From a virus: a stretch of DNA of 64,000 nucleotides. The notes under the pieces are model-generated. The model ran no database searches. It worked only from the letters and a program-made list of their open reading frames with translations, and was not told where the DNA came from. The translations under genes were made by a program, and so were the position numbers. Below, one piece after another: positions 16,875 to 42,180 of the stretch; position 1 is the first letter of the stretch; every line of letters starts with the position of its first letter. The stretch covers positions 28,388 through 92,387 of the IMG/VR virus record IMGVR_UViG_3300006752_000018. One strand, written 5' to 3'.

Positions 16875-19800
16875 ATGGCAGAATTTAATATATCACGATT
16901 TAAATACGTTTGGAAAGGTCCGTGGGCTAACGGTACTTCATTTAGTCAAGATGATATTGCAGTCGTAGGTGGTAAAATTTATGTATGTCTCATAGGGCAT
17001 ATATCTTCGCTTTCTTCATTCGACGATGATCTAAACGCACTCGACCAGTATGGCAATCCAGAACCAAGATGGGTGTTAATGGCAGAAGGTCAACGCTGGA
17101 GAGGAAATTGGGCTGCTAGTACAAAGTATGAAACAAGTGAACTTATTAAATATGGCGCTACAATTTATAGCTGTATTGCAGGACATACAAGTGCAGCTTT
17201 AACAACAGATGGAGTTGCAGCAGACATTGAAAAGTGGACATTCATTGCTAAAACTTCTGATTGGAGAGCAAGTTGGACTGTATCTCGCAGCTATTTTGTA
17301 GGCGATGTGGTTACATATAATGGTGCTATATATCAGTGTATACAAGAACACACTTCAAGGTCAACTACCGAAGGATTAGAATCTGATCAAGAAAAATGGC
17401 TGTTAATTAATTCTTCTGATAATTATAGATTTACATGGGGCACTGGAAATAGATATGTACTAGGAGATGTTATAACATATGGTGGTAGAATATACCGCTG
17501 TACTACAGGACATACATCTAATGCTAACGAATTGTTAGGCTTGCCTATTGATTCTAGCAACTGGGAAATTGTATTAGACAGTACACGTTACAGAGGTAAT
17601 TATGCAAATGACACAGTATATCTACCTAATGATATTATAAAATGGAATAACAGTTTATTCATTACACAGGCAGTTGTAAGTAATTCAACATTTACACCAG
17701 GTAACTGGACACTTTATATTCCTGGAACAGGGTACGAAGCAGCGTATGATAAAACATTATCATATCAAATAGGAGATATGGTTTTATACGGAGGTTATAC
17801 TTATAGAAGTATTAGTAACTTAAATGTTGGAAATATTCCTTCTACTACTAGTGCGCAATGGACATTAGTGTCAACAAGTTACAACTTTAGAGGACAATGG
17901 ACTGCTGATACTTTATATAAAACCGGTGATGTAGCACGAGATGGCGGCGACTTATATGTTGCAACACAAGATACATCATCTTATCCGATTGAAGAACCAA
18001 CGACTATTACATACGAAGTTACAGTTAAAGAAGTAAACAGTGCAAACAGATATCATGTCAATGACATTCTTACTCCTAATTTATTTTTAGTAACAGGTAA
18101 CACATATATAATTGACCAGACAGATGTTACAAACAATACACATCCAATGTACTTTAGCACTATTGCTAACGGGCATCATGTTGACGGTTCTTATAATTAC
18201 CTTGCAGGACCTGTATATTTACTGGACGATATTGAAACTACACCTGAATTATATATAAGCGGCTTTAGTGCTGCTAATTCTAGAAAAATAAGAATTGAAC
18301 CGGAATTTAATTGGGGAGAATTTTATCCTGTATGTGCAAATCATAGCGGCATGTACAACTTTTCATCAATAACACCTACTAATGATAGCACAAGTTGGGA
18401 TAGAATAGTTAGAGGACAAGCATGGAAAGGTCCTTGGAATTCTACAAATAGATATGCACTAGGTGATGTATCAACCTATGCAGGAACAGCATATACTTGT
18501 GTACAAGCTCACAGAGGCGACGACAGTAGTTTAGTACGACCGGATATAGATGCTGACAACAGTTATTGGGAAGTGCTTATTTTAGGTAGTGCTACTAACG
18601 TTCTTATTAATGTAGGTGATATAAAATATAGAAGAGACACTGATGATTTAGCATTTCCTATCGGCACTGCTGGTAATACTCTAAAGGTCGATAATACAGC
18701 CCCGTCATTACCACCTATTGAATGGTCTGCATTCCAGGCTACACCTAAAGTTTACTATGTTAGTTTACTCGGAGCAGATACAATACAAAATGGTTCCGAA
18801 GGAGCACCATTTAGGACAATTAAATATGCATGTGAGTATATAGCAGCTGATGCTCCAGCTAGATCTCCTGCAACTCTTTTCCTCAAGACCGGAACATTTG
18901 AAGAAGAATTACCCATTGTTGTTCCAAGAGATGTTGCAATTGTAGGAGACGAATTACGAAGTGTAGCAATTAAACCAGCTACTGGATTTGAAACTGCAAA
19001 TATGTTTTATATGTCTAATGGCAGCGGGTTACGTAATTGCACCTTACAAGGGTTAAACGGGACACTAGGAGATCTAAACGAATACTTAACAAGAAGACCA
19101 ACCGCAGGTTCGTATGTAAGTTTAAATCCTGGAACAGGTCCAAACGACCAAACTGCTTGGATTGATAGTAAATCTCCTTATGTGCAAAATGTTTCAGCAT
19201 TTGGTACAGGATGTACTGGAATGAAAATTGACGGAGCTCTGCACAACGGAGGCTATAGATCAATGGTTGCAAACGATTTTACACAAATCTTAAGTGACGG
19301 CATTGGTTACTGGGCAAGCGGTGAAGGCAGATCAGAACTTGTTAGTGTGTTTACCTATTATTGTCATATAGGATATCTTGCAACAGGTGGCGGTAAATTA
19401 CGTGCTACAAATGGTAACAATTCGTATGGTCAATTTGGATCAGTAGCAGAAGGTGTAAATGATGAAGAATTGCCTATCACTGCTACATTAAATAACAGAG
19501 CTAAAGAAGCACAAGCATCTGAAGTTTACTCAGACGAAAATGGAAAAATTATCGGCCTATCCTATAGTCATGCTGGTCAAGATTACACATCAGCACAATA
19601 TATAATTACAGGTTCGGGCGTAGCAGGTAACTTAGAAGCACAGCATACTAGATATAAAGGTGTTTCAGAAATTAGAATTAAAGAACCAGAAGATTCTAGT
19701 AACATAGGCGGCGCTGATTATAGAAGAATAGAAAACAACGCTCAAATTGGTGGCTTAACTAGTATTACGTTATCAGCTTCAGAAATTATAGATGATAATA

Positions 19801-22032: not shown

Positions 22033-22068
22033 ATATTAAGCAATTGCCTATAGGGGAGAGTGAACCGA

Positions 22069-25000
22069 ATGGCTGAATTTAAACTCGGTAGAATCAGATT
22101 TATCTGGAAGGGTACCTGGACCGCAGGTACTGAATATGTACGTGACGATATTGTATCGTATGGTGGTAAAACATTTATTGCCATCCTTGCACATACAGCA
22201 AGTAGTGATCTTGAAACAGATCTTAATGATGTCCAACCAAAATGGGAACAGTTCGGCGACGGTTTAGCATGGCGCGGCGATTGGAATGTTGCAACATATT
22301 ATAAAGTAAATGACATTGTTAAAAACGGCGGTTTCTTGTATATATGTAATACAGGACACACGTCTAATGCTGATGTCTTAATAGGTCTTGAAGGTAATCT
22401 TTCAAACTGGGATTTGTTTGCTGAAGGTTTAAATTACGCAGGAGCCTGGAGCACAAACACAAAATATAAAATCAATGATATTATAGCATATGGCACAGCT
22501 ACGTATATTTGTACACAAGCGCATACAAGTGCTGCAAATATTGTAGACGGGTTAGAAGTTGATGATTTAAAATGGTCAGTCTTTTCAAGAGGTATGGATT
22601 GGAAAGGTGTTTGGACAACAAGCACACGTTACAAAGAGTACGATGTTGTAAATTATTACGGAAGAATTTACATGTGCTCTACCGGACACACATCACAAGC
22701 TACTGTTGCAGCAGGTTTAGAAGATGATATTGTTAACTGGAATTTAATGTACGATGGCATTAATTACAGAGCAGCGTGGGCACCTACTACACGTTATACA
22801 GTAAACGATGTTGTAAAAAACGGACCTAGCTTATATATTTCCACAGCAGAACACACATCCACCGGGACATTTGCTGCTGATTCATCTAATTGGGATGTAT
22901 ATTTACCCGGCATAGAATTTGAAGATTCATGGAGCAATAGCACAATTTATCAACCTGGTGACATTGTAACATATGGTGGATATACGTATATCGCAAAATC
23001 AGATCACAGCAACAGTGTACCATCGACAACACCTGCAGACTGGGATTTATTTATAACTGGATTTAATTTAGAAGGCGACTGGGACATTGCTACAAATTAT
23101 AAAGTAGGTGATGTTATAAGATTAAACGGTTACACATATCTTTGTAATGCTGATAACGTCGGCAATATTCCGCCTAATGCAAGCTACTGGGACAAACTAA
23201 ACGAAGGCTTCTATTGGACTAGTGCATGGGCTGATGCAACGTCATATGTTGCAGGAGACGTGGTTAATTTTAGCGGAAATGCATATGTTTGTATCTTGGC
23301 ACACATAGCAGACATTGCGTCAAACAAACCAGATTTAGATACAAATGGTACATATTGGAATATTGTAAGTTCAACTGCGGAAGAAAATACACTTACAACT
23401 GACGGCGATATATTATATTATGCAGGGTCAGGACCGGCTAGATTACCAATAGGAAATCCAGGACAGGTATTAGCAGTTAATGCAAGTGCAACTGCGCCTG
23501 AATGGATTGATTTTGGATTTGTTGAAAACGTATTTTACGTAGCACCAAACGGAACAGATGCAGACGGATTTGGAACAACCTTAGATAGACCATATGCTAG
23601 TGTAGCATATTGTATGAATTACATTTTAACTTCAACTAGAAGACACAACGCAAAGGCATTATTAGATGCAAATGTAGATTTCATTGCAGCAGAAGTTGTA
23701 GAATGGACTGATTATCAGATTGCAAATAGTATTGCACCATTTACAAATGCATTTACATATGATAAGGCTTTGTGCTTGCGAGATATGAAAAAGATTGTAA
23801 AAGCAGTAGGATATGATATATCACATGGCGGAAATGTTGAAACAAGAAAAACAGCGCAATCATATTTTACCGCAGCAGGTGCAAGCTATATTCTTGGACA
23901 AGAAACAGAAACTGTTGCATCTATCAATTATAGTTTAGAAGTTGTTGATGCTGTGTTAAGCAATGTTGCTCCAGCTACAAACTATCAAACTGAAAACAGT
24001 GTTGCAACACCTGTAACACAAACTATTGACGGTACATTGACAGAAGAAGCTGATGCAGAAACTACATATGATACTTTAGTAGGGTTAATTACTGCATCTA
24101 TTACAGCTGGCAATACAAATTCTTTACCTGCAGAACAAGTTGTTAATACAACTGTATTTGTTAAAACAGGTGAGTACTTAGAGCAATTACCAATTTCTAT
24201 TCCTGCACATACAGCAATAGTAGGCGACGAGTTACGTTCTACAAAAATTAAGCCTGCTTCAGGCAATGAAACAGCAAATATGTTTTATGTAAGAAATGGT
24301 TGCGGAATAAGAAACTGTACACTTGCAGGCTTAACAGGATCACTTAGCGGAGCAAATGCGTTTGGTACAAGTCGTCCTAGTGCAGGCGCCTATGTAAGTT
24401 TAGATCCAGGTGAAGATGAAACAGATAGACTAGTTTGGATTCATAGTAAATCACCATACATACAAAATGTGTCAACATTTGGCACAGGCTGTATAGGGTT
24501 AAAAGTAGATGGCAACTTACATGATGGTGGTAACGACTCAATTGTTGCAAACGACTTTACACAAATCTTGAGCGATGGCATTGGATATTGGGTTACAAAC
24601 TTAGGTAGATCAGAGCTTGTTAGTGTGTTTACATACTACAACCATATTGGTTACCTTGCAGAAAACGGTGGTAAGATTCGTGCTACTAACGGTAACAACT
24701 CATATGGTGCATTTGGATCAGTAGCAGAAGGCATTGACTCAACAGAAGTGCCTAATACAAGTACAGTCAATAACTACTATACAGAAGCAAACGTTGCAGA
24801 GACTATTACCGACGGTGATAGAATTTTAGCACTAGAATATGCAAACTGTGGTGTATCATATACAACTGCAACTTATACATTTATTGGTGAAGGTATTGAC
24901 GTAGCAGTAGGCGCAATAGATACAAATGACGGCGGTATATTTGAAATAAGGTTGTTAAATAGTGCAGGAAATTATGGTGGTGCTGATTACCAAACATCTT

Positions 25001-26331: not shown

Positions 26332-26346
26332 ATAAAGGAAAGAAAA

Positions 26347-26673: not shown

Positions 26674-26679
26674 TAAATA
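26672..26679 (+). promoter_or_regulatory. Late promoter GATAAATA
   Basis: Heads the Cys-rich adhesin cassette. Confidence 0.7.
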
Positions 26680-26699
26680 CATTGTAGTAAGGAATTAAA

Positions 26700-27032: not shown

Positions 27033-27046
27033 TATAAGGAAGCATA

Positions 27047-27778
27047 ATGGCAAGTTTAAGTAGTTTAAAAGTAGACTTAGCACCGGCCTCTAATCCGGGA
27101 ATAACTTCGTTTACTGTATCAAATGATAGTCGAAGTCAAAATAACGGCGGCAGGTGTTGCTTATTTACTGTGCCAGATGGTGTTACCCAAGTTACCTTTG
27201 AGTTATGGGGATCAGGACCTAATGGTGCTGCTGCTAGATGCTGTCAAGCAACAGTATTCACTGGCTCAGGAGGCATGTATGCAATGCGTACAATTTCAAC
27301 TGTAGCTGGTTGTACATATACACTATGCGCAGCAGGAAGCGGATGCTGTAGTTCAAGTTGTAACGGCTCTACAGGAGCAACAACATATGTTAGCGGTTCA
27401 GGAATAGCAACAACATGTGCACCATCAGGTGAACCGGGTAGAACATCGTGCTTTACATTAGACGGCTCTACCTGTTGTGCAGGATGTGTTGTATGTAAAA
27501 CATCAGCAGGTGAATGGTGTATGCCAGCAATCAGAAATACAACACATAAAGAAGGTGGGTGTTTGAATACTAATAAATGGGTAATGGGAGGTGCTTATCA
27601 ATTAGGCACTTTTAATGCTACGAGATCAATTTGTACGAATACTACATATTGTAATGCTTGTTGCTGGGGATACGGACACTTTCCAGCAGGTCCAGGATCA
27701 AACGCTATAACTTGTTCAGGAGTTTGCCGTTGTGGTACTCCAGGAATGGGCGGAGTAATTAGAGTGTCATATGCATAA
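27047..27778 (+). CDS. Cys-rich glycine-rich-domain adhesin 1
   Basis: 24 Cys in 243 aa (hand count); NNGGRCCLFTVP..V...ELWG...GG.IRVSY frame matches the Gly-rich module. Confidence 0.65.
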   Translation: MASLSSLKVDLAPASNPGITSFTVSNDSRSQNNGGRCCLFTVPDGVTQVTFELWGSGPNGAAARCCQATVFTGSGGMYAMRTISTVAGCTYTLCAAGSGCCSSSCNGSTGATTYVSGSGIATTCAPSGEPGRTSCFTLDGSTCCAGCVVCKTSAGEWCMPAIRNTTHKEGGCLNTNKWVMGGAYQLGTFNATRSICTNTTYCNACCWGYGHFPAGPGSNAITCSGVCRCGTPGMGGVIRVSYA

Positions 27779-27790
27779 AGGAAGAAAAAA

Positions 27791-28441
27791 ATGCCAAACA
27801 ATAATATTATAACAACAGCATTTACTTTTACTGCTCCAGATGAGCAATTTAGCACATCGACAAGTAACAATGTAACAGTAAATGCAGAATATACAGGACC
27901 AGATAAATGGTATGTTTTTGTAGATGAAACTACAGGGATTATGTCACAGGGTATGTGGCCAACTTTAACAGACGAGAATGATGGGGCCGATGTAGGCACT
28001 CCAGCGGGTGCATTGAAGGTAATGATTAATTCAGCGGATGATCCGTTTATTGCTTCTATTATTGACCCTAACGGTTATTCACAATCTACTGCAAGCTCAA
28101 CAGTAACTGAAACTATTACATTAGCAGACGATAGTACAGCAGATTATAGCTATGATTGGCCACAATCGCCAGACGAAATTGTAGATAGAACAACAATACG
28201 TTATGCAGATGGTGCGTGGACACATAGCTTTATAGAAGCAGAAGTAACTTGGGACGATGTAAGATCAGCAAGAGATACTGCTTTAGAAAGTTCAGATTAT
28301 AAGGTTCCGGCAGATATGCCAGACGATTTAAAAGCAACTTGGGTAGCATACAGGGCTGCACTTAGAGCATTACCGGCAAACTGGATAGGCCAAGATGCTC
28401 ATAAAGTAATTTTTCCTGAATCACCTGAAAATTCAGCATAA
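27791..28441 (+). CDS. Tail fibre assembly chaperone-like protein
   Basis: C-terminal W..VR..RD..L..SD....D.P...K..W..YR.ALR.LP motif; paralog of 29966. Confidence 0.75.
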   Translation: MPNNNIITTAFTFTAPDEQFSTSTSNNVTVNAEYTGPDKWYVFVDETTGIMSQGMWPTLTDENDGADVGTPAGALKVMINSADDPFIASIIDPNGYSQSTASSTVTETITLADDSTADYSYDWPQSPDEIVDRTTIRYADGAWTHSFIEAEVTWDDVRSARDTALESSDYKVPADMPDDLKATWVAYRAALRALPANWIGQDAHKVIFPESPENSA

Positions 28442-28454
28442 TTAAGGATATAAA

Positions 28455-29204
28455 ATGGCAGGCTTAAGAAGTTTATTAGATTACGGATCCGACGGAGGAG
28501 TACCAACAAACGGCACAATGTCAGTTGTAAGGATATTAGCATCATCACCGTCTAATGTTAACAACGGAGGTGCCTGTTGTCTATTTACTGTGCCTGCAAA
28601 CGTTAAATGGATAGGTGTAGAATTGTGGGGAGGCGGTGGCGCTGGCGCTGGCGCACCTAACTGTCACGCTGGCCGCAGCGGCGGCCCTGGCGCTTATGGA
28701 AGAAAAATATTTGAAACTTCTCCAGGAACTCAGTGGACAATTTGCGCAGGCGGAACTACGTGCTGTAGATCAAGTTGTTGCGGATGCACCGGTTTTGGAT
28801 CATATATATGTCAAGGCTCTACAGCTTGTATGTGCGTAAGCGGAGGCTCGGCCGGATGCACACTCAGTTACGGTAACTGTAGTTGCGGTAATTCATTAAA
28901 TAATTGTCAAACAGGGTGTGTCAATGGTGCAACATTATGTATTCGTCCTGTACAAGGACACGGAAAATGGACATACGGTGGTAAGTGCAACTTCAAACAG
29001 TTTGCTCCAGGAGCGCCATATGCACATACGACAGGAATATGGAGTATGACAGGTTGTGCAACATGTCATGGATTAGCATTTATGGGAGGTTGCGTACCAT
29101 ATCCAGGACACGGTGGCATGAGCGGTAATAGTGCAGGTGGTACTGTTTGTGGTGCACCGGGCGGATCTGGTATGGTACAAATACTATATATTGCATCGGA
29201 ATAA
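28455..29204 (+). CDS. Cys-rich glycine-rich-domain adhesin 2
   Basis: 23 Cys in 249 aa; NNGGACCLFTVP...ELWGGGG. Confidence 0.65.
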   Translation: MAGLRSLLDYGSDGGVPTNGTMSVVRILASSPSNVNNGGACCLFTVPANVKWIGVELWGGGGAGAGAPNCHAGRSGGPGAYGRKIFETSPGTQWTICAGGTTCCRSSCCGCTGFGSYICQGSTACMCVSGGSAGCTLSYGNCSCGNSLNNCQTGCVNGATLCIRPVQGHGKWTYGGKCNFKQFAPGAPYAHTTGIWSMTGCATCHGLAFMGGCVPYPGHGGMSGNSAGGTVCGAPGGSGMVQILYIASE

Positions 29205-29213
29205 GGATAGAAA

Positions 29214-29957
29214 ATGGCTAATTTAAGAGATTATTTATATGGATACGAAGCAGGAGGAGCCAATGTTCCGCAAGAGTTAGTGGTATTTAACACTAATATT
29301 ACTACAGGTAACAACGGAGGTAAGTGTTGTTTATATACTGTAGGACCTAATATGACTAGCGTCAGCGGCGAAGTTTGGGCAGGCGGTGGTGCAGGCGCAG
29401 GCGGATATTGTTGCACATTTGGTTGTGGCGGCAGTCCAGGAGGCTATGTAGAATTTAATGCACCGGTTACGCCTGGCGATAGTATAACAGTATGTGCAGC
29501 TGGTTCAACTTGTTGTAGAAGTTACAGTAGTTGCCAAAACGGTGCCAATTCTTATATTTGTAAGCCGGGTACATGGTGTATTATAGCATGTGGTGGCTGT
29601 CACGGTTATTGGCAATGTAATGGATTTTATTGCTACACATGTCAACGTGTTTGTCAAGAAAACGGCGGAGCTATTAGTGGTAGTGGTGCTACAGGTACAA
29701 TACATCCAAGAAATTTGTCATATGTGTTTAATAACAACTGGTGTTACAACCACACTTATGAAGTTAATCCAGGACCTGCAATGACAGGACATACACGTAT
29801 GTTTGAAAATGGTTGCTGTATGAATAGATACGGCGCAGGATGTTACTTCGGAACATTTCCAGGCGGAGGTGGCATGACATCGCATACACAAGGCGGTTGT
29901 ACTAGCCAATGTGGAACACCGGGCGCCGGCGGCCAAGTATATTTAATATTTAGATAG
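29214..29957 (+). CDS. Cys-rich glycine-rich-domain adhesin 3
   Basis: 23 Cys in 247 aa; NNGGKCCLYTV...EVWAGGG. Confidence 0.65.
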   Translation: MANLRDYLYGYEAGGANVPQELVVFNTNITTGNNGGKCCLYTVGPNMTSVSGEVWAGGGAGAGGYCCTFGCGGSPGGYVEFNAPVTPGDSITVCAAGSTCCRSYSSCQNGANSYICKPGTWCIIACGGCHGYWQCNGFYCYTCQRVCQENGGAISGSGATGTIHPRNLSYVFNNNWCYNHTYEVNPGPAMTGHTRMFENGCCMNRYGAGCYFGTFPGGGGMTSHTQGGCTSQCGTPGAGGQVYLIFR

Positions 29958-29965
29958 GATGAGTA

Positions 29966-30583
29966 ATGACGACAATAAATGTAGATTTTAGTTATAAAGC
30001 ACCAAACAAACGTGGTGAACCTAACTTAGAAAATTACACTCTAGCATCGTGGTCATATACAGGACCAGATAGGATATGGGTGTTTATAGATGCCGAAACG
30101 GGGCAACTTGAACCGAGAGATGCATTAACTGTAGAAACAGACGGAGAAACATTTAATCCTGTACCAACAGAAATTAAAGTAGAAGTTGATCCGACTCGTG
30201 ATCCATTAGTAGCAACTTTAGCTGCAACAGACTTTGATGGCGATGCTCCTACAAGATCATGGGCCCTTCCAGATGGTAGAACACATATAGATTTTGATCC
30301 TTTACCGCCACACGAAGCATACCGTTGTGAAGGTGTTGTGTACGATGCAGCAGCTAATACTTGGTCTTACACATGGGATAGAAATTTAATTACGTGGGAC
30401 CAAGTAAAAAGTACACGTGACTCTCTATTAATTTGGAGTGATCCTAGAGTTAGAGATGATATACCAGAAAGTGTAAAAGCACCGTGGGTAACATATAGAC
30501 AAGCATTAAGAGATATTACTACTGTTTGGGCAGGGCATGAAGCATGGGAAGTACTTATGCCAAATATACCAGAAGGCGGCTAA
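29966..30583 (+). CDS. Tail fibre assembly chaperone-like protein
   Basis: YTGPD..WVF.D.ETG shared with 27791; RD.LL..SD...W..YRQALRDI C-terminus. Confidence 0.75.
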   Translation: MTTINVDFSYKAPNKRGEPNLENYTLASWSYTGPDRIWVFIDAETGQLEPRDALTVETDGETFNPVPTEIKVEVDPTRDPLVATLAATDFDGDAPTRSWALPDGRTHIDFDPLPPHEAYRCEGVVYDAAANTWSYTWDRNLITWDQVKSTRDSLLIWSDPRVRDDIPESVKAPWVTYRQALRDITTVWAGHEAWEVLMPNIPEGG

Positions 30584-30606
30584 ACCACTTTTAGTTTAAT
30601 TTTGTA

Positions 30607-30642
30607 TGCCTCTCTATAAGTAATTTATAGAGAGGTATTTTT
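30607..30642 (+). promoter_or_regulatory. Hairpin sequestering the SD and containing late-promoter variant TATAAGTA; also terminator-like
   Basis: tgcctctctataa-gtaat-ttatagagaggta followed by ttttt then ATG at 30643. Confidence 0.6.
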
Positions 30643-31614
30643 ATGTCAGAAAGAAACAAAGCATTTTTTATTAATGGTGGCGCAGGCCGTGTAATTACAA
30701 GCATTCCAGCATTAGAATTGTTCGAAAAAGAAAATCCAAATAACGATTTTATAATAGTATGTGAGGGCGGAACTGATTTTTATAAAGGACATCCGCAATT
30801 GCATAAACGTGCATACGATGTATGGCATAAAAATTTATTTGAAGATAAATTAAAAGATATGGATTTAATAAGTCCTGAGCCGTATAGAGTTTGGGAATAT
30901 TATAATCAAAAAGGCAGTTTAGCTCAAGCATACGACATAGAAATTAACAAACAAGGTCTTAGAGAGTTGCCTCGTCCTCACATCTACCTTGGAAAACAAG
31001 AAACTGTCTTTGCACAAAAACTTATAAAAGAAATTAAAGAAAAAACAAAAAAAGAAAAAGTAATAGTATTTCAGCCATTTGGTAGAGGTATTATGAATGA
31101 AGACGGTATGATTTTAGATCCTACTGGAAGAAGTTTCGAGCCTGAAGCTGTTGTAAGTATTGTGAGAAAACTTTCTAAAAAGTTTGCAGTAGTGTTTATG
31201 TCAGAAATAGGTATACAATTTGGTGACTACGATATTAAAGAACCTATAGCTATACCTCAAGGAGCTGACTTAAGAGAATGGTCTGCTATAATAAATCAAG
31301 CAGATTATTTTTTAGGATGCGATAGTGTAGGACAACATATGTCATATGCATTGCGCACCCCTGCAACAATTGTTTTAGGTAGTACATACGAAATAAACGT
31401 GTCATATCCTGGCTGTAAATATTTTGATATTTTAGATATGGGAGAAGATGCTAGAATGTATAGTCCTATACGTATAACTGTAGATGAGTATACAGATAGA
31501 ATGAACGAAGGTGTTATGAGAATGAATGATAAAATAGAAAATGTTATTGTTGAATCGTGTGTTAAAAATCAAAAAAAATGGAATGGTAAACCTGAGCTAA
31601 AGGATGCAGCCTAA
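30643..31614 (+). CDS. GT9-like (ADP-heptose heptosyltransferase-type) glycosyltransferase
   Basis: GGAGRVITSIPAL N-terminus; LREWSAIINQADYFLGCDSVGQHMSYAL..P...LGST resembles the GT9 DS..H signature. Confidence 0.65.
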   Translation: MSERNKAFFINGGAGRVITSIPALELFEKENPNNDFIIVCEGGTDFYKGHPQLHKRAYDVWHKNLFEDKLKDMDLISPEPYRVWEYYNQKGSLAQAYDIEINKQGLRELPRPHIYLGKQETVFAQKLIKEIKEKTKKEKVIVFQPFGRGIMNEDGMILDPTGRSFEPEAVVSIVRKLSKKFAVVFMSEIGIQFGDYDIKEPIAIPQGADLREWSAIINQADYFLGCDSVGQHMSYALRTPATIVLGSTYEINVSYPGCKYFDILDMGEDARMYSPIRITVDEYTDRMNEGVMRMNDKIENVIVESCVKNQKKWNGKPELKDAA

Positions 31615-33395
31615 TGATTAAAAAAGATCCTATATGGATTGCTGCTATTGCTAGAGGTCATAATGCAAGTGTATGTCTTTTAAAAGATGGTGAAATTATT
31701 TTTAATATTGAAGAAGAAAGGTTAAGCCGCCAGAAGTATGACGGTGGACCGTTTGCTGGAATGTATAAAATATTAGAATATACAAATAAATTAGATTATC
31801 TAGTTGTAGCACATACCCAACCATTAAATGAAGCAGGTAGAATAGACTTTAGTGGTGATGATATGTATACAGGCTTAGCAAGAAAACTTGGTCTTATTGA
31901 TAGGAAACAAAATCCATATGACCACCCTCAAGTAATTGATATGAGTAGTTATCACCATAAACTACATGCAGCATGTGCTTTTTATAGAAGCGGTTTTAAA
32001 GAAGCAGCTGGCTTAGTTGTTGACGGCGCAGGTACATTTATTAATATGGGAGATACTATAGTTTGGGAAGTTGAAACTATATTTGATTGTTCTTATCCTA
32101 ATAACTTAGCTACTGTAAGAAAGAATATTGGCACTACGGGTCCGTTAGTTGAAAAATTTGCAGAAGGTATTGATAGTAGTATCTTTAATGATAATGGTAC
32201 ACACGAAGCATATGTAACTGAAAAAGCCGGAATAACAAAAACTTATGAAGCTGTTACAGAATATTGTGGATGGAATTTTATTGAAGCCGGAAAAACAATG
32301 GGTTTGTTTCCGTATGGTAACCCAAACGAAAATATTCCAAAACTTTTTCATAGTACACTATACGGCGATGTCAGTAATAGAAATTTAATTATACCAACAT
32401 ATCCTAACGGTGCATATGTTAACAAAGATGTATACGAAGAATTATATGAATCTGGTGATGAGGAACAGGATCTTACACTATTACAAAATAGGCGTGACTT
32501 AGCCTATGCTGTACAAACACAAACACAAGAACAAGTGGTAAAACTAATTCGTAAAGCAGTTGAAATGACTGGTAAAAATAAGGTTGTAATAAGTGGCGGC
32601 TATGGATTAAACTGTGTTGCTAACTACTACTACTTAGATAATTTAGATGACATTGAAATATATGTTGAGCCTGTATCTAATGATAGTGGAACAGCAATGG
32701 GCGCAGCATTACTTCAATGGTATGAAATTACTAACGATACAACTGTTCGAAAAAGGACAGATACGTTATACGAAGGATTTCAATATTGTTATTCAAATGA
32801 CGAAATTGAAACATTGGCAAAAAAATATAATGCTACAGTGCAAGATGCAGTTGATGAAGATGTAATTAATTTAATTACAACAAAAAATATTGTAAGTATA
32901 TTTCAAGGAAAGTCGGAAAATGGTCCCCGTGCATTAGGAAACAGAAGTATACTTTATGATCCTACAGATCCAAATGGAAAAGATTTTGTAAACGAAATAA
33001 AACGCAGGGAATACTTTCGTCCATTTGCAGGTAGTATATTAGAAGAAGATGTACATGAGTGGTTTGACTTACGTGGCATGGATAGTTCGCCTACAATGAT
33101 GTATGCTGTAAATTGTCAACCCGGTATAGAAGAAAAGATTCCCGCAATTATTCACATAGACGGAACATGTCGTATACAAACTGTTAACGAAGAACAAAAC
33201 CCAAACTATTATAAACTTATCAAGGCGTTTAAAGATGCAACAGGATGTCCAATTATTTTTAATACATCGTTTAACTTAGGGGGAGAACCCCTTGTTGAAA
33301 CATTAGAAGATGCGTTATGGACGCTATCACAAAGTGGTATTAACTACTTGTATCTACCAGAATTTGGAAAATTAATAACATGTATAACCGAATAA
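31614..33395 (+). CDS. Carbamoyltransferase (NodU/CmcH/TobZ family)
   Basis: HNASVCLLKDG...EEERLSR.K, HH.LHA, DGAG, GKTMGL.PYG, SGG.GLNC.AN, D.GTA.GAA, E.GPRALGNRS, KRRE.FRPFA, NTSFN..GEP.V. Confidence 0.93.
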   Translation: MIKKDPIWIAAIARGHNASVCLLKDGEIIFNIEEERLSRQKYDGGPFAGMYKILEYTNKLDYLVVAHTQPLNEAGRIDFSGDDMYTGLARKLGLIDRKQNPYDHPQVIDMSSYHHKLHAACAFYRSGFKEAAGLVVDGAGTFINMGDTIVWEVETIFDCSYPNNLATVRKNIGTTGPLVEKFAEGIDSSIFNDNGTHEAYVTEKAGITKTYEAVTEYCGWNFIEAGKTMGLFPYGNPNENIPKLFHSTLYGDVSNRNLIIPTYPNGAYVNKDVYEELYESGDEEQDLTLLQNRRDLAYAVQTQTQEQVVKLIRKAVEMTGKNKVVISGGYGLNCVANYYYLDNLDDIEIYVEPVSNDSGTAMGAALLQWYEITNDTTVRKRTDTLYEGFQYCYSNDEIETLAKKYNATVQDAVDEDVINLITTKNIVSIFQGKSENGPRALGNRSILYDPTDPNGKDFVNEIKRREYFRPFAGSILEEDVHEWFDLRGMDSSPTMMYAVNCQPGIEEKIPAIIHIDGTCRIQTVNEEQNPNYYKLIKAFKDATGCPIIFNTSFNLGGEPLVETLEDALWTLSQSGINYLYLPEFGKLITCITE

Positions 33396-33418
33396 ATACA
33401 TTATCAAGGAGATTGTAA

Positions 33419-33829
33419 ATGGCAATATTTATTGACAAGTATTTACAAGTAGGTAGAAAAAATACTATAAGTCTAAAAAACGATACACAATTAATGAGAA
33501 CCGGTCCGTGGGTAGCTATTCCATTAGAAACGGAATTTGATCGTTTTTATTTAGGAGATTTTACAGGCGCAGAGTATACAATCTTTGTAGACTTGGATAC
33601 ACAAAATAAAGAAATGTTAAAAATATTAGTAGTTGCATCTTTAGACAAAGCAACACTTACAGTTTTTGGAAGATCAAATTTGGGCAATGAAATTGTAAGT
33701 CTAAGTGCTACAGTAAATGATTCTTATGTAAGTTTGAAGGCTACTCCTAGTGCCGATGCATATAAAAATAGTAAATTAGTTTACAATGCATTTTACTTCC
33801 AAAATCAAAATTTATTGGTTCCTTACTAA
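33419..33829 (+). CDS. Hypothetical late/virion protein
   Basis: 136 aa ORF with late motif and GGAG SD. Confidence 0.55.
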   Translation: MAIFIDKYLQVGRKNTISLKNDTQLMRTGPWVAIPLETEFDRFYLGDFTGAEYTIFVDLDTQNKEMLKILVVASLDKATLTVFGRSNLGNEIVSLSATVNDSYVSLKATPSADAYKNSKLVYNAFYFQNQNLLVPY

Positions 33830-34821: not shown

Positions 34822-37800
34822 ATGTCAAAGAAAAAACTCTCTACGTATATTTTTAACCCAGGGCGAGGCGTTTTAGAAAATGTCGTTCCAAATGCATACT
34901 CATTAATCGAGTCAAATAAAGAATATATCAAAGACGAAGCAGTTGAATACATTAATTACAGGATTGCATTAGACACAGGTAACGACGATAATCCTGATGC
35001 ATCGGCACAACTAGCAGCAAATAATAATTGGATTAAACGAGAATTAAAAGAATGGATACAAACTGAAGCTGACGCAGCCCAGTTATCTTACACTCCTACT
35101 GATGCTTCATATACAGGCGCAACTGGTGTTTTAAATATAACAATTGGTAGTCACAGTCTTTCTGTTGGGGATAAAATTAAAATTGCCATAGGTGGCATAA
35201 CATTTACCTGTGAAAAAGATAACAATGCAACATTACATCCATACCCACGTGAATCCGGTGTGGCAAACATTACAGGTAACGATCCGTACGCTCATAATTT
35301 AATTGAAATTACAGCAACAGATGCTACATCAATTACAATGAATGTAGGTATATCTTCGGATACAAGTGTTCATACATTTTTTAGTGCGTTAGATGATGCA
35401 GTATCAACACCTTTTTATGACTATACATATAATGAAGAATTTTGGGATACATTGTTAGATGATATTGTTGATGGCATAAAATTTGACGTACGATACGGAG
35501 GAACATATAGTACAAATGCTGCAACACGTTTACTTTGGGACGATGAAACTTCTCTTGTAGCAGGAAATAGAGCACCGCTACAACTTGTTTTTGACGAATT
35601 AGAAAATATATATAATAATTATGTTTTACAAAACGTGCTTAAAACTCCAGTACTACAAACTGAAATTATACAAACACAAGCAGGATCTCCTTCTGAAGCC
35701 GGAGTTTCTACAAAAATTTCAAATTTTATATTAACAATACAACAAACATTAATCAACGGTGTCGATTCAGTTCCTAATGACACATACGGTTATGCATTTG
35801 CAGAATATACTTATAACGAATATAAATGTGAAAGAGATATTGGATATGTTATAGATGCTTATTTGCATGATTTAAGATATACAGGTAACAAAAGTACATA
35901 CGAAGTGTCGTCTTTTTACTGGAAGCAAGGAGTTCCGCAAGTAGACGGTAATAGATTACCTGAAGTAGAAACACATCAGTTTATTGAAACACTACTAAAT
36001 GATTACATACTATTGAATACTGCATTTACTACTCGTCAAGATCCAGTAAGAAGTTCACAGGCAATAGATTTAACAAAGTCAACAGAAGTAGGTGTTGTAA
36101 GTAGTATAACAACATTAAGAACGCTGTTAACAGACGTAATTTTAAACGGAGTAGAGTCGTTACCGACAAAAGTAAACGGTTTAGGTACTATTCGTGTGCA
36201 AGGTAGATTTAGAGAAGAAGATATTTTGCTTATTACAAATGTTAGCAAGGGCGAAGTAATTTATACATTCAATGACCCTGGTAAAATTGCAGACGTTGAA
36301 TTTTTAAAAGATACAGATGTTGATGCAAGTATTGAAGAAGAATTTAGTAGCTTTAGTCAGACAGCTGATACTATTACAAGTATAAAGCTATATTATAGTA
36401 CTGCTACACATACGTCTACTGATAGATTACAAATATTCGTAGAAGATAAAGAAATCAGAACAAGACCGTTTGATTTTGGTACAGATGCTATTGAAAGAAA
36501 CAGAGTAGCAAATGCACAATCTATGCTAGATGCTGACTTTGAATACGGATTGCAACCTACTAAATGGCAAGCTATTGGTATGCAGCGCGGTTATCCTAGT
36601 ATTTACGAAGTACCCGGTACAGAATTAAATGTTATATCGGTAGTAACAGATGCATCTATTGCAACATCAGGTATTGGTTCTAGTTTAATAACAGTCACAA
36701 CTACTGCACCGCACGACTTTAATCCAGGTGAACCGTTTACTATTAAAGGTTTGGGCGGCACTGCATTAGGAATTGGTAGAGCAGAAGGCTCCTTTGTTGT
36801 AAATGGTATACCTACAAGCACAACTTTTAACTACTATGCAAAGTCTAAAGTAGGGATTAATACAGGCGAAGTATTATCTACTTATTATACACAACTTAGA
36901 AAAGCCGGGTTTTACACAGGAGCTGCTGTAGGATCACCTACTTTTTCAATAGCAAGTCAAGGTAGTGCAGGAACATTTACAACTTCGTTGTCTCATCCGA
37001 CAGGATCGGATACTATAACTGTAAACGGAACAATACCTGAATTAGGAGCACCGCTTGTACAACAAGGCGCTCTACCATATTCTGTACCAACAGGATCACA
37101 GGTTACAGGTAGTATAGGAGATGGATCAGGTGTTCAAGTTACTGCTGGCACAGCTGAAGATATTCTTCAAGGCGAAAATAGTTTTGATGTAATAGACACT
37201 TCGGGTATAGTTGTAGGTATGGCAATTGACTTAGGAGACGGAAGCGCAGGTATTGTTACTACTATACAGGGAACAACTGTAAACCTAGACAGGCCATTAA
37301 CGGCTAACAGAGCAGGTTCAGATGTGACATATGAAGACTTAGCAGCATCACTGCAAACTGCAACAATAGGAACAAATGCAACATTTAATGTAAGTAGGAG
37401 CGCAGGAACGTATACTACTACAATAAACAATGCTGGATCAGGATATGTTGTAAATGATGTATTAGAGATTTCGGGTAATTTATTAGCAGGACAAAATCCT
37501 GCTAATAATATTTATATACGTGTTACTACAATCGGCAGTAGTGGAGAAATTCTAACATTTGATGAAAGTGGTGTAGCAGCGCCAGCTGACGGCAGTTTTA
37601 CAGGACTATCAGGTATACTACAATCTGGAGTAGGAACAGGAGCATTTTTTGACATTACAAAAACAAATAATGTTTATAGTGCAGCAGCAGCTAGTCTTGA
37701 CGAATTAGTTAACGGTTTTGATCCTGCGCCTTTGGGAGCAAATGCTACATTTACAATAAATGTAAGTGCAGGTGCATATAGTGTTATTATTGAAACAGGT

Positions 37801-40800
37801 GGAGTAAATTATGTAACAGGCGATCAGATATTAATAGATGGCACATCATTAGCAGGGCAATCTGGTACAAATGATCTACTTATTACTGTTACAGGGATTG
37901 ATACAGGTACAGGAGCAATTACAAATGTATCTTCAACAGGTACCGGTGCAGCAGAAGATGCAACTTATACTTCGTTTACTGCTACATATGCAGGTGCTAG
38001 TGGAATAGATGCCCAGTTTATTGTAATACAAGCAGGCGCTACGTATACAGCACAAGTAACAAATCCTGGTTCTGGTTATGTCATTAATGAAACTTTTTTA
38101 ATTGACGGAACTGAATTAGGAGGCACAAGTCCAGCTAATGATTGTACAATCACAATTAATACATTAGGTACTAATGATAGTATTGATACTATTACTACTA
38201 CTGGTACAGCACTTGACTCGTATGCAATATCTAATGCTAGTGGTCAAAACGTTTATGGTCAAAATGCACAATTTAGGATAACAGAAAGCGCAGGGTCTTA
38301 TTCATTACAAATTATTAATGGCGGAGAATATTTTACTACATCATCTGTAATTACAATACTTGGCCCTGTGGTACGCGGAACGAATGCTAATGACGCAACT
38401 ATATCTGTCACGGGTGTAACTGCAACTGGTGAAATTACAGCAGCAAATATTACAGGTACGCCTGCAGATTTAAGAGGCACAGGTTATGCAATAGGTGACG
38501 TAATAATAATTGCAGGTGATCAATTAGGTGGTCAAGCTGCTGTCAACGATTGTTCAATTACTGTTAGTACAATTGGTGCTAATGGAGAAATTACATCAGT
38601 ATCTGAAACAGGAACAGCAACCGACGGGTTTGCAAGTTATGATAATGTAGTTTATAGCACACCATCTAACGGTATAAATGCTTCACTTCAAGTTTCACGC
38701 ATAGGAACTACATATAGCGTTAATATTAATGGTGGAGGCTCAGGCTGGAGTATTGGCGATACATTAGATATTTTAGGTACTGCATTAGGCGGAACTTCGC
38801 CTGCAAATAACTTAGTTGTAACTGTTGCTACAATTGACGGTAACGGTGGAATAACTGACACAAATATATCAGGTACTGCGGCTAACACAGAAATACTGCC
38901 TGCAATAGAAGGAATAAACGAAGCGGGTACAGGAGCAGGATTTGATATTACAAATACTGCAACCGTATATACACTAGATTTAATTTCAAATCCAGGTGAG
39001 GGTTATTCTGTTGGTAATCAAATTGTTATATCTGGTGTTGAATTGGGCGGTGCTTCTCCTGCAAATGACTTTACTATTACAGTATCAACAGTTAACGGTA
39101 CTGGTGGCATAACTGCTGTTACAACAAGTGGTACAGGTGGTAATGGATCTGGTACTTATACTGCGTTAGTACCCCAATATGCTCAATTTAATGGTGTCAG
39201 TGCAACTTTTGATATCCAGCGAACTGTATCAAATTACGTAGTTATTCCAAACAATGCTGGTACAGGATATCTAGTAGGTAATACATTAATTGTTCCAGGT
39301 AGCGATGTAGGCGGTGATGGCGGCACAAACGATGTAACAATTGTAGTTGAAAGTATAGACGGGACAGGTGGAATCACTAATGTAAGTACTAGTGGAACAG
39401 TTACATCATCCGCTGCATTAGAATTTTATAGCACTGTTACAATGACTGAGGTATTAACTGCTCCATTAGCAGCAGCAGTAAATGTTGCGTTTGAACAACT
39501 TGCAACAATTGAAATAGACTTTGATGGACCGCATGGTATTGTTCCAGGTGCAACTGTTATTGCTACAATAACAAGCGATGACGGAAGTAACGAACATGCA
39601 TTAGCTGCTGGATCGTTTATTGCAACAAGTATACCTACTAATACAAGATTATCATATCAGGCTAGAACAGCAGGTACAATTGACACAGGTATTGAAAATG
39701 CTAACGCAGTAACTGGAGCTGTCTACTTAAGACCAGACAGCTTTTTTATTCATAGACCGTATGACGGCGGTGTTCAATTAGGAACCGGTGGTCCGCAGCA
39801 CGGTGCTCAAGCAATACGTCAAAGTAAAAACTATATCCGTTACCAATCAGGTAAAGGTATTATGTATACAACTGGTGCACTTTTTGCACCTAGTTACGAT
39901 ATTTTAAATATGTCAGCAACAAGTGCTAATATTGGATCGTTAATTACAGTAGAAATTGATGACGCTGATCACGGATTACAAGTAGGAGGCGGCATAGAAA
40001 TACTAGGAGTCGAAACTGCTGGATATGACGGTTTGTATACTGTAACAGATGTTGTTAATGAAAGAGTGTTTAAAGTAACTGCACAAACACAATTAGGTTC
40101 AAGATTGCCTACATTAAGTGAAAGCTGTCAAGTTAGTATTAAATATTGGCACGGTGCAACTGTTAGAGCAGGAGCTTATGATGATCAAAACGGAATCTTT
40201 TGGGAGTATGACGGAAATAATTTACTTGTTGTACAAAGAAGTAGTACGTTCCAAATTGCAGGATTAGTATCGATTGATCCTGATAAAAACCTAGTTACAG
40301 GAACTAGTACAAGATTTAAAGACCAGCTTAAAGCAGGTGATAGAGTTGTATTAAAAGGCATGACACATGTAGTGAGTCAAATTGATAGTCAAACTCAAAT
40401 GTCTCTAACACCTGATTATAGAGGTGTTAGACCGGCAGTAAATGCAAAATTATGTTTAGTAAAAGATAAAAAGGTAAAACAAAAAGATTTCAATTTAGAT
40501 AAAGTTGATGGCACTGGTCAAAGTGCATACAATGTTGATATATCAAAAATGCAAATGATCGGTATTCAGTATAGTTGGTATGGTGCTGGATTTATAGATT
40601 ACATGATACGTGGAGCCGATGGTAACTTTATTTTCACTCACAGAATGCGTAATTCAAACATTAACACAGAAGCGTTTATGAGATCTGGTAACTTACCGGT
40701 GCGTTATGAAGTGACAAATGAGGGACCAAACGGAAAACTAGCAGACGGAATAGATAATGCACAAACATCTATACCTTTAGAAGATGCTTCCTTCTTTCCA

Positions 40801-42180
40801 GAATTAGGTGCAACAATTTATATTGATAATGAAATTATAACATATACAGGCATTGACGGTAATAATTTAACTGGATGCACAAGAGGAACAAACTTAATTA
40901 ATTATCAAGCAGGCGCTCAACGTACCTACACAGCAGGCCCTGCAGCAGCACATACTAGAAGAACAGGTGTTATTATAATTAGTAACACGATTACACCTAT
41001 TATTAGTCACTGGGGTTCAGCGTTTATTACAGACGGCGGATTTGACGAAGATCGCGGATATATCTTTAGTTATGCTTCTACGGGAGTTGAAATTTCTACT
41101 ACAAGACAAACGGCATTCTTAATTAGACTAGCACCTAGTGTTTCTAATGCTATTACTGGAGACTTAGGAGATAGAGAGCTTCTTAACAGAGCACAGTTAC
41201 TTCTAAACGGTATTGAGGTTACATCTGATCCTTTGGGTTCTACAGATACAGGTGGTATTATTGTTGAAGGCGTTCTAAATCCTCAAAACTATCCAGAAGC
41301 ACCAGGAGACGTACAATGGGTATCTTTGAATACACAAGCTGAAGGCGGACAGCCCTCCTTTGCCCAGGTTGTAGCAGGTGCTGGTATTAACTGGGGTGTC
41401 GGAGCTGCTGTTACAGAAAGTGCTTCTACTGTAGCAGTTGGTATAACACTTACAGCAACTACCACAGCATATAGCCAAAATAACCAGTTTGTTTTTATAC
41501 CATCATCTCCTGTCGTTCCTATCGAAGCAGGCATGATTATAACCGGTAATAACAATAATGGCCAATCAGTGTTTAGAAATAATACTGTTGTAAATTCTGT
41601 ACAACGAAACAACGCAAACGTATGGTTTGGCAGCGGCTCTGCCCGAGCTGATAGACTAATTTTAAACCAAAGGCTGGAAAGAAGTTATTCTTATGGCTTC
41701 ACATCAACGCTTACATATCCTGCACCTGATGGAGTAACAACAACATTATTATTTACAGAATCAAACTTTTTAGCTACAGGTGCAACAACTGGTACTCCTG
41801 TTGCAGTGTCTGATGCAAACTTTCCTGCTGGTACAATTATATCTAGTATAGAATCAATTAATCTAGATGGTACTCTTTATTCAAAAGTTACACTTAACCA
41901 GGCCTCGTTTAGTACCTTTGCAGCAGGAGACAGTGTCACATTTGATCTTACTGCGGCGGCTTTTGCTAAACCTGGAGAAACTATCTTTAAGTTTATTGCT
42001 GTTCCTGGAGAGCGTTCAGAACTAGATCTTTCACCGATCAAAGAACTTACAAACACAAGTTTAGGTGGTAGAGGAACGTTTCCAAACGGTCCTGACGTGT
42101 TAGCTATTAATATACGTAAGACAAGTGGTGCAGCGATTGAAGGAAATGTTATTCTGAAGTGGGGAGAAGCTCAGGCGTAG
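34822..42180 (+). CDS. Very large (2452 aa) virion structural protein with nested globin-like inserts and 8 beta repeats
   Basis: ILLITNV...IY.F.DP, DADFEYGLQPTKW, RYQSGKG, YSWYGAG motifs typical of T4-like marine phage structural proteins; GSGY..GD...I.G..LGG.SPAND repeats. Confidence 0.75.
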   Translation: MSKKKLSTYIFNPGRGVLENVVPNAYSLIESNKEYIKDEAVEYINYRIALDTGNDDNPDASAQLAANNNWIKRELKEWIQTEADAAQLSYTPTDASYTGATGVLNITIGSHSLSVGDKIKIAIGGITFTCEKDNNATLHPYPRESGVANITGNDPYAHNLIEITATDATSITMNVGISSDTSVHTFFSALDDAVSTPFYDYTYNEEFWDTLLDDIVDGIKFDVRYGGTYSTNAATRLLWDDETSLVAGNRAPLQLVFDELENIYNNYVLQNVLKTPVLQTEIIQTQAGSPSEAGVSTKISNFILTIQQTLINGVDSVPNDTYGYAFAEYTYNEYKCERDIGYVIDAYLHDLRYTGNKSTYEVSSFYWKQGVPQVDGNRLPEVETHQFIETLLNDYILLNTAFTTRQDPVRSSQAIDLTKSTEVGVVSSITTLRTLLTDVILNGVESLPTKVNGLGTIRVQGRFREEDILLITNVSKGEVIYTFNDPGKIADVEFLKDTDVDASIEEEFSSFSQTADTITSIKLYYSTATHTSTDRLQIFVEDKEIRTRPFDFGTDAIERNRVANAQSMLDADFEYGLQPTKWQAIGMQRGYPSIYEVPGTELNVISVVTDASIATSGIGSSLITVTTTAPHDFNPGEPFTIKGLGGTALGIGRAEGSFVVNGIPTSTTFNYYAKSKVGINTGEVLSTYYTQLRKAGFYTGAAVGSPTFSIASQGSAGTFTTSLSHPTGSDTITVNGTIPELGAPLVQQGALPYSVPTGSQVTGSIGDGSGVQVTAGTAEDILQGENSFDVIDTSGIVVGMAIDLGDGSAGIVTTIQGTTVNLDRPLTANRAGSDVTYEDLAASLQTATIGTNATFNVSRSAGTYTTTINNAGSGYVVNDVLEISGNLLAGQNPANNIYIRVTTIGSSGEILTFDESGVAAPADGSFTGLSGILQSGVGTGAFFDITKTNNVYSAAAASLDELVNGFDPAPLGANATFTINVSAGAYSVIIETGGVNYVTGDQILIDGTSLAGQSGTNDLLITVTGIDTGTGAITNVSSTGTGAAEDATYTSFTATYAGASGIDAQFIVIQAGATYTAQVTNPGSGYVINETFLIDGTELGGTSPANDCTITINTLGTNDSIDTITTTGTALDSYAISNASGQNVYGQNAQFRITESAGSYSLQIINGGEYFTTSSVITILGPVVRGTNANDATISVTGVTATGEITAANITGTPADLRGTGYAIGDVIIIAGDQLGGQAAVNDCSITVSTIGANGEITSVSETGTATDGFASYDNVVYSTPSNGINASLQVSRIGTTYSVNINGGGSGWSIGDTLDILGTALGGTSPANNLVVTVATIDGNGGITDTNISGTAANTEILPAIEGINEAGTGAGFDITNTATVYTLDLISNPGEGYSVGNQIVISGVELGGASPANDFTITVSTVNGTGGITAVTTSGTGGNGSGTYTALVPQYAQFNGVSATFDIQRTVSNYVVIPNNAGTGYLVGNTLIVPGSDVGGDGGTNDVTIVVESIDGTGGITNVSTSGTVTSSAALEFYSTVTMTEVLTAPLAAAVNVAFEQLATIEIDFDGPHGIVPGATVIATITSDDGSNEHALAAGSFIATSIPTNTRLSYQARTAGTIDTGIENANAVTGAVYLRPDSFFIHRPYDGGVQLGTGGPQHGAQAIRQSKNYIRYQSGKGIMYTTGALFAPSYDILNMSATSANIGSLITVEIDDADHGLQVGGGIEILGVETAGYDGLYTVTDVVNERVFKVTAQTQLGSRLPTLSESCQVSIKYWHGATVRAGAYDDQNGIFWEYDGNNLLVVQRSSTFQIAGLVSIDPDKNLVTGTSTRFKDQLKAGDRVVLKGMTHVVSQIDSQTQMSLTPDYRGVRPAVNAKLCLVKDKKVKQKDFNLDKVDGTGQSAYNVDISKMQMIGIQYSWYGAGFIDYMIRGADGNFIFTHRMRNSNINTEAFMRSGNLPVRYEVTNEGPNGKLADGIDNAQTSIPLEDASFFPELGATIYIDNEIITYTGIDGNNLTGCTRGTNLINYQAGAQRTYTAGPAAAHTRRTGVIIISNTITPIISHWGSAFITDGGFDEDRGYIFSYASTGVEISTTRQTAFLIRLAPSVSNAITGDLGDRELLNRAQLLLNGIEVTSDPLGSTDTGGIIVEGVLNPQNYPEAPGDVQWVSLNTQAEGGQPSFAQVVAGAGINWGVGAAVTESASTVAVGITLTATTTAYSQNNQFVFIPSSPVVPIEAGMIITGNNNNGQSVFRNNTVVNSVQRNNANVWFGSGSARADRLILNQRLERSYSYGFTSTLTYPAPDGVTTTLLFTESNFLATGATTGTPVAVSDANFPAGTIISSIESINLDGTLYSKVTLNQASFSTFAAGDSVTFDLTAAAFAKPGETIFKFIAVPGERSELDLSPIKELTNTSLGGRGTFPNGPDVLAINIRKTSGAAIEGNVILKWGEAQA

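Follow-up and report, generated by a model that had tools for sequence, protein, structure and literature searches.

Results

Two phycobiliprotein-like domains are nested in a giant virion protein

The window analyzed here, a stretch of 64,000 nucleotides, is part of a 92-kb IMG/VR virus record (IMGVR_UViG_3300006752_000018, positions 28,388 to 92,387) that is estimated to be 28% complete. On its plus strand, a gene at 34822..42180 encodes a virion protein of 2452 amino acids (aa), assigned to the tail or baseplate of a marine cyanobacterial virus, the N-terminal region of which contains two copies of a helical module of about 170 aa. We regard it as nearly certain that this module is a true, very divergent homologue of the phycobiliproteins (PBPs) that can be inserted into baseplate and fibre proteins, and that in the 2452-aa protein one copy (domain B) sits inside the other (domain A) and a beta-barrel sits inside domain B, in the same loop. 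The reading that we favor as a whole, with a little more confidence than doubt, is that of a divergent PBP-homologue virion module whose Cys-x-Arg-Asp copies may bind bilin.

The gene was taken from the open reading frame (ORF) list and its translation, and residues 1132-2012 of its product match PHROG 5838, "virion structural protein" (E 1e-238). A hidden Markov model (HMM) of the module family splits the N-terminus into four pieces, and the profile coordinates of these pieces reveal the nesting of B inside A. All window features described below lie on the plus strand. The outer domain A begins with aa 23-55 (34888..34986; aa 23-52 match profile positions 24-53, E 6e-5; predicted helices at 23-53), which correspond to the PBP helix preceding the B-E loop. 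The inner domain B begins with aa 57-90 (34990..35091; profile positions 23-56; predicted helices at 58-84), is interrupted by the beta-barrel at aa 91-195 (35092..35406; predicted strands at 94-174; PHROG 1276 match at aa 93-178) and resumes with aa 196-320 (35407..35781; profile positions 55-187, E 1e-15). The C-terminal half of domain A follows at aa 321-461 (35782..36204; aa 326-461 match profile positions 57-198, E 5e-26) and carries the motif K-C-E-R-D.

A first-pass annotation, made from the sequence alone, had placed two phycobiliprotein-like domains at 34888-36170, from codon 23 of the ORF to a base within codon 450, and had described one of them as Cys-less, with its CxRD lost. The peptide strings it quoted are all present in the translation of 34822-42180, and the codon for Cys336 of domain A, one of seven Cys in the whole protein, is TGT at 35827-35829. 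Domain B has indeed lost the entire Cys-Arg-Asp triad: Trp208 (35443-35445) occupies the Cys position and Thr-Leu replaces Arg-Asp (W-D-T-L).

The two domains are related to one another and, as the same annotation had proposed, to a domain inserted in a second virion protein. BLASTP aligns the C-terminal halves of A and B (E 5e-13) and matches each domain to the insert of a 1423-aa fibre protein (E 3e-7 for A and 2e-8 for B). This third copy, domain C, is contiguous and occupies aa 523-697 (23626..24150; limits from comparison with a paralogue); it carries L-C-L-R-D, with the codon for Cys572 at 23773-23775. After the halves of A and B were spliced, hhalign aligned each of them with copy C from end to end (2e-30 over 156 columns for A, 1.8e-25 for B) and the two with each other (1.8e-40).

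An AlphaFold2 (AF2) model of residues 1-470 of the 2452-aa protein was obtained at moderate confidence (predicted local distance difference test score, pLDDT, 68.8; predicted template modeling score, pTM, 0.64). Its best structural matches are PBPs (Z 13.5, root-mean-square deviation [rmsd] 3.4 Å, 141 aligned residues). The alignment starts at residue 17 and stops at residue 441, within the C-terminal half of domain A, which indicates that both halves of A pack as one domain in the prediction. The expectation that the discontinuous halves fold together is thus borne out by the model. Relatives in other viral contigs show the module in its separate states: as a contiguous A-like copy (L064), as a copy with a single beta insert in the same loop (L044) and as an A/B pair that lacks the beta insert and whose inner copy is also Cys-less (L048). 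Both the nesting of B in A and the modular mode of insertion are well supported.

The beta insert has a conserved motif, G-x-L-x-x-T-I-G-x-H ... T-F-T-C-x-x-D ... H-x-Y-P-R, and recurs singly or in tandem among relatives (L044, L052). VIA-align matches it at Z 7.5-7.9 to the beta domain of Uba1/UBA6 (chain residues ~179-296), a phage head-to-tail interface protein and the beta-barrel of an endosialidase. When the first 493 aa of the 2452-aa protein were compared with PDB sequences by phmmer, the sole match was an iota-carbonic anhydrase repeat, which fell on this insert (E 0.0016).

The same protein contains at least five divergent repeats of about 70-95 aa at aa 881-1472 (~37460-39240), detected by BLASTP with one unit at 34-42% identity and having the rough consensus SGxGYxxGDxxxIxGxxLGGxxPxNDxxITV. 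Tandem Repeats Finder detected no DNA-level repeats at 36200-40200.

Sequence profiles relate the module to phycobiliproteins

The relationship to PBPs, which is well supported, was traced mainly through copy C and the wider family. A phmmer search of PDB sequences with copy C gave 29 matches, of which 28 are PBPs; the best was ApcF (E 0.006), with 85 residues in register including the preceding helix. With a profile of 18 copy C orthologues, all 11 matches were PBPs. Three homologues from a search of 5.8 billion proteins also pass the gathering score of the Pfam phycobiliprotein family PF00502 (22.2 bits), namely P0005 with 27.4, P0019 with 45.3 and P0044 with 37.2 bits.

We then compared profiles by hhalign, using a reference set of 27 PBP genes from five cyanobacterial genomes. 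The 18-orthologue profile aligned with this set over 115 columns (P 6e-6). A profile of 250 diverse copies, less than 45% identical to one another, aligned with a probability of 95.5% and a score of 52.1 (P 1.6e-8). As controls, 50 column shuffles scored at most 19.6 (15.7 for the 250-copy profile), and a reversed alignment scored 11. The Cys, Arg and Asp of the phage module fall on Cys82, Arg84 and Asp85 of the PBPs, in the numbering of the first PBP of the alignment, which is of phycocyanin-beta type. In consensus PBP numbering this is the Cys84-Arg86-Asp87 triad, which is present in A (KCERD) and C (LCLRD) and absent from B.

Predicted models adopt the phycobiliprotein fold

A template-free AF2 model of copy C reached a pLDDT of 88.8, and nearly all of the PDB matches listed for it by Foldseek are PBPs. 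VIA-align superimposed residues 23-178 of the model on PBP residues 34-172, with 128-136 residues aligned at Z 13-14.4 and an rmsd of 2.6 Å; of the 50 matches listed, 49 are PBPs and the other is PDB entry 8u0f. The sequence and structure alignments share the same register. The globin-like PBP fold was found in the predicted models of copy C and of the nested region, domain B having no listing of its own. In the ESM Atlas, look-alikes of copy C comprised only unnamed viral clusters and generic phage-tail clusters. Together, the profile alignment (P 1.6e-8) and the predicted fold bear out the phycobiliprotein-like identity that the first-pass annotation had assigned.

The module resembles PBP subunits (CpcA/B, CpeA/B, ApcA/B/D/F) in its globin-like helical fold and in the in-register Cys-x-Arg-Asp on the same helix. 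Also common to both are an aromatic residue 13 positions after the Cys, a Gly 18 positions after it and a conserved Asn in the preceding helix. Unlike those subunits, it is embedded in giant virion proteins, where it occurs in tandem, inserted in loops or nested, and it shows no sign of ring or rod assembly; identity is only ~12-18%. In PBPs, the Arg at +9 from the Cys pairs with Asp13 in the alpha-beta interface. The pairing signature formed by Asp13 and Arg91, two columns without variation among the 27 PBPs, is not maintained in the phage family, and the best structural alignments (rmsd 2.6 Å) reach PBP residues 34-172 only.

PBP relatives outside phycobilisomes are known in the form of bilin biosynthesis-associated globins (PMC10151467). 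These too employ the PBP fold outside antennae, but they are small free-standing proteins encoded beside bilin reductase genes, whereas the phage modules are parts of virion proteins. Entry 8u0f, "Bacterial fluorescent protein", equals true PBPs in its match to the copy C model (Z 14.0, 151 residues) and, judged from its title, may belong among such relatives.

The Cys-x-Arg-Asp triad is mostly retained or lost as a unit

A profile search of 1.84 billion proteins identified 1350 proteins with the module at E <=1e-3, some with up to 38 copies. Three metagenomic proteins, P0125 (6382 aa), P0126 and P0127, contain 32-38 module matches in one chain, and the module can therefore form most of a giant protein. 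The triad was counted in 1838 unique copies from 270 proteins, including representatives from this search. Cys is present at the site in 1706 copies (92.8%) and the full C-x-R-D in 1650 (89.8%). Arg-Asp is retained in 96.7% of the copies with Cys, compared with 41.7% of those without it; loss usually takes the triad as a whole. Where Cys is absent, Trp most often stands at its position, in most cases with Val-Tyr or Ile-Tyr instead of Arg-Asp, and domain B is a variant of the same kind. Among the 250 diverse copies, column conservation is 0.88 for the Cys, 0.92 for the Arg and 0.96 for the Asp. The most conserved column is a phage-specific Asp (0.99), and a Tyr (0.96) equals the triad Asp.

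The first-pass annotation had called one copy alpha-like and another beta-like. The likeness of motifs is real: KCERDIGY of domain A compares with KCARDIGYY of the reference cpcA genes, and LCLRDM of copy C with AACLRDM of cpcB. Domain A aligns best with CpcA (P 3e-4). As a single sequence, copy C aligns best with beta-type PBPs (P 2e-5), but its orthologue profile prefers alpha-type PBPs (P 1.1e-5 versus 6e-3), and the motifs of copy C orthologues vary (KCRRD, LCYRD, KCERD and others). This switch of preference between sequence and profile, together with the variation of motifs among orthologues, speaks against separate alpha and beta origins for the copies. The phage copies are also far closer to one another (1e-25 to 1e-40) than to any PBP. 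Their mutual closeness, variable motifs and inconsistent alpha or beta preference point to descent from one ancestral phage domain.

The interrupted loop resembles that of presumed ApcE proteins

We found a related architecture in the five cyanobacterial genomes, where the PF00502 match is broken at Pfam positions 54/68 in ORFs of 862-1153 aa. These have the size of core-membrane linkers and are presumably ApcE. The phage insertions lie 11-15 residues ahead of the Cys, at about Pfam position 62-66; on the family profile the break falls at positions 53-57 and the Cys at 68, and the Cys of the presumed ApcE lies near Pfam position 77. As in ApcE, a PBP domain in a large multidomain protein is interrupted in the B-E loop, between the preceding helix and the helix with the Cys. 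The resemblance is architectural only: ApcE is a cellular antenna protein and the phage module belongs to virion proteins. The ApcE insert is a loop rather than a folded domain or a second PBP domain, and the ApcE bilin is attached at a different Cys, without a lyase.

The module is confined to cyanophages and uncultured marine viruses among the records searched

In tblastn searches of 50,697 phage records, the N-terminal 493 aa of the 2452-aa protein matched 320 records and copy C alone matched 128 (E up to 0.01). All of these are Synechococcus or Prochlorococcus phages, "Cyanophage" records or uncultured marine viruses, and a fold search of BFVD gave the same distribution. Among 17 T4-like cyanomyovirus genomes, 14 encode the module and 12 of these 14 also have a match to CpeT (PF06206), a bilin lyase homologue; unfiltered whole-genome HMM searches found neither in P-SSM2, S-SM2 and S-SSM7. 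A one-sided Fisher test of the co-occurrence gives p = 0.015 for the 17 genomes, uncorrected for phylogeny.

In S-PM2, Syn1 and S-RSM4, a full-length cpeT lies 0.7-1.5 kb upstream, on the same strand, of a giant "short tail fiber" gene whose module copies are nearly all K-C-x-R-D (S-PM2 162500-177000, L253; Syn1 18500-33500, L254; S-RSM4 162000-178500, L255). The order hypothetical gene, cpeT, giant "short tail fiber" gene is conserved across phages of three genera; the hypothetical gene is T4-like GC 730 in S-PM2 and Syn1, and in these two phages cpeT and the fibre gene are separated by a 2OG-Fe(II) oxygenase gene. What cpeT does in phages has been described as unresolved, and the function of their bilin-synthesis genes as a mystery (PMC3037559). 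The RefSeq entry for S-PM2 places 16 tRNA features, under one shared locus tag, within the span of the giant "short tail fiber" coding sequence, which suggests a fault in the annotation or the coordinates of that entry.

Light affects the adsorption of some of these phages. Adsorption fails in the dark for P-HM2 and P-HM1, depends on light but not on host photosynthesis for S-PM2, and proceeds in darkness for P-SSM2 and the podovirus P-SSP7 (PMC6628666). By the orthologue profile, P-HM2, P-HM1 and S-PM2 encode 4, 5 and 8 copies of the module, respectively, and P-SSM2 and P-SSP7 encode zero; this pattern comprises five phages, is uncorrected for phylogeny and supports nothing firmly.

Other copies, an empty insertion site and neighboring genes

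The 1423-aa protein that carries copy C (gene at 22060-26331) matches PHROGs annotated "tail fiber protein" and has eight CBM5/12 repeats. Copy C separates the N-cap helix of this protein from the first rung of its beta-helix. The gene at 16875-22013 encodes a 1712-aa paralogue that shares the beta-helix and a CBM-like N-terminus. By BLASTP, residues 16-522 of the 1423-aa protein correspond to residues 130-656 of the paralogue, and residues 698-1076 to residues 667-1047 with 55% identity. Where the 1423-aa protein has the 175-aa domain, the paralogue has 10 residues (18843..18872). Read from this alignment, the two fibre proteins are a natural before-and-after pair for domain insertion.

A fourth copy is encoded upstream of the window, in a 2061-aa ORF at record positions 18956-25138 on the plus strand. 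It lies at record positions 19481-20128, after the N-cap helix of a beta-helix, and has T-C-E-R-D (HMM E 5e-34). The first-pass annotation had proposed a mobile domain used three times in two unrelated virion proteins. We found nothing in common by BLASTP between the 2452-aa and 1423-aa proteins outside their PBP-like domains, and the picture of an insertable, reused domain holds; the count is revised to four copies in three proteins of the contig.

Two further observations concern the neighborhood. A Nol-like carbamoyltransferase gene (31614-33395; PHROG 1601, E 5e-164) lies amid the fibre and baseplate genes. At 27047-30583, a row of five small paralogous genes matches PHROG 4205 and PHROG 9740 in alternation, and one of them shows weak likeness to tail fibre assembly proteins.

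Discussion

In the full-text literature searched, PBP-like domains of cyanophage virion proteins are nowhere described. It is quite possible, and we propose tentatively, that the Cys-x-Arg-Asp copies (A, C and the fourth) bind a linear tetrapyrrole and that B is a pocket-filled, non-binding variant. This proposal is based on the link to cpeT and on the triad, which is selectively kept and whose residues are lost together. Domains A and C and the fourth copy would retain the Cys84-type site of PBPs. Bilin enzymes of the host or the phage would provide the tetrapyrrole during infection, perhaps aided by a lyase, and the pocket of copy B would be filled by Trp, Thr and Leu at the three triad positions. 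The ligand-dead control that the first-pass annotation saw in B would follow only from binding by the Cys copies. For a pigment on the virion, the most attractive role would be a light-dependent change of the fibres. In our judgment it is unlikely that mature virions carry covalent bilin on their Cys modules and that these serve as a photoreceptor of the baseplate or fibres.

A number of findings weigh against PBP ancestry or against pigment binding. PF00502 has no match with E up to 1 in the 2452-aa protein, its first 493 aa or the 1423-aa protein, nor in a six-frame search of the whole 92-kb record. The window copies therefore count as superfamily-level relatives and, by the Pfam criterion, not as family members. 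The phmmer search of the PDB with the first 493 aa returned no PBP. Aligned directly with PBPs by hhalign, A and B score weakly (P 1e-3 and 1e-2), so their link to PBPs goes via copy C and the wider family. The Arg at +9 from the Cys, invariant in 27/27 PBPs, is Asp in 220 of 261 phage copies. A second Cys of the Cys-153 type is absent from the window copies, and the other columns of the family have at most 7% Cys. T-type lyases are described as acting at the Cys-153 position, not Cys-84 (PMC10452541), which makes CpeT a poor mechanistic fit to a Cys-84-type site. The three phages that lack the module may belong to one clade, and its co-occurrence with CpeT may then reflect a single event. Neither cpeT (PF06206) nor a bilin reductase gene (PF05996) was found in the 92-kb fragment, which is ~28% complete. 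The existence of Cys-less copies indicates that the fold is independent of a ligand, and the literature searched contains no report of a pigmented cyanophage particle.

These findings bear differently on the explanations that compete with pigment binding. A chance or convergent likeness, in which an unrelated helical bundle happens to contain C-x-R-D, would fit the marginal E-values of single sequences (0.006 to 1), and according to VIA-align's own note unrelated helical bundles can also reach Z ~14. We consider it exceedingly improbable: the profile-profile score lies far beyond 50 shuffles, three homologues exceed a curated Pfam threshold, the registers of sequence and structure agree, and the PDB matches are nearly all PBPs (28/29, 11/11, and 49 plus 8u0f among the 50 listed). 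The stronger competitor accepts the ancestry and dispenses with the pigment. The host-captured fold would now be a rigid spacer or a surface-adhesion decoration of the fibres, and Cys-x-Arg-Asp would be structural, for example as part of a polar network with the phage-specific invariant Asp (+14) and Tyr. The domain is indeed used like a fibre decoration: it is nested, it interrupts loops and it forms tandem arrays that reach 38 copies. In being modular, repeated and loop-inserted it is the same as known accessory domains of fibres (immunoglobulin-like domains, carbohydrate-binding modules), from which it differs in its all-helical structure, its host-photosynthetic origin and its conserved cofactor-type triad. 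Cys-less copies such as B fold in the model, the top conserved column is the phage-specific Asp (0.99), and of the columns that PBPs conserve, the phage family keeps only a few, namely the Asn, the triad, the aromatic residue at +13 and the Gly at +18. Against such a role, a single Cys in 93% of 1838 copies would be unusual for a purely structural residue of an extracellular helical domain. The three triad residues disappear together, with bulky hydrophobic residues in their place. The domain also co-occurs with a bilin lyase homologue, the role of which in phages is described as unresolved (PMC3037559), and adjoins it in three phages. We think this account possible without leaning toward it.

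The pocket might instead hold something other than bilin, such as another tetrapyrrole, a metal or a ligand from the host surface, or the Cys might form an inter-chain link in the fibre. Only the triad and a few other positions are common to PBPs, and a phage-specific D-x-x-x-G-G-N beside the site is as conserved as the triad. These observations have to be set against the properties of the site: no partner residues for metal binding were apparent, each domain has a single conserved Cys, and the triad residues of PBPs are known only to hold bilin. A non-bilin function or a Cys cross-link seems to us quite improbable, and a PBP-derived virion module with possible bilin binding remains the reading that we favor.

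PBPs are known as the antenna proteins of cyanobacteria and algae. Their fold and their pigment-attachment residues are now found as a building block of virus particles. The window also supplies its own controls, in the form of a Cys-less copy and a paralogue with an empty insertion site. If the module binds bilin, the purpose of phage cpeT and of the bilin-synthesis genes would become directly testable (PMC3037559), as would the light-dependent, photosynthesis-independent adsorption of some cyanophages (PMC6628666). Should the module prove to be a photoreceptor, the light requirement for adsorption in some cyanomyoviruses would be accounted for, and so would the presence of cpeT and bilin-synthesis genes in cyanophages. 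Even free of pigment, the module would be a clear case of a host photosynthetic protein turned into a structural part of the virion that can be inserted and nested.

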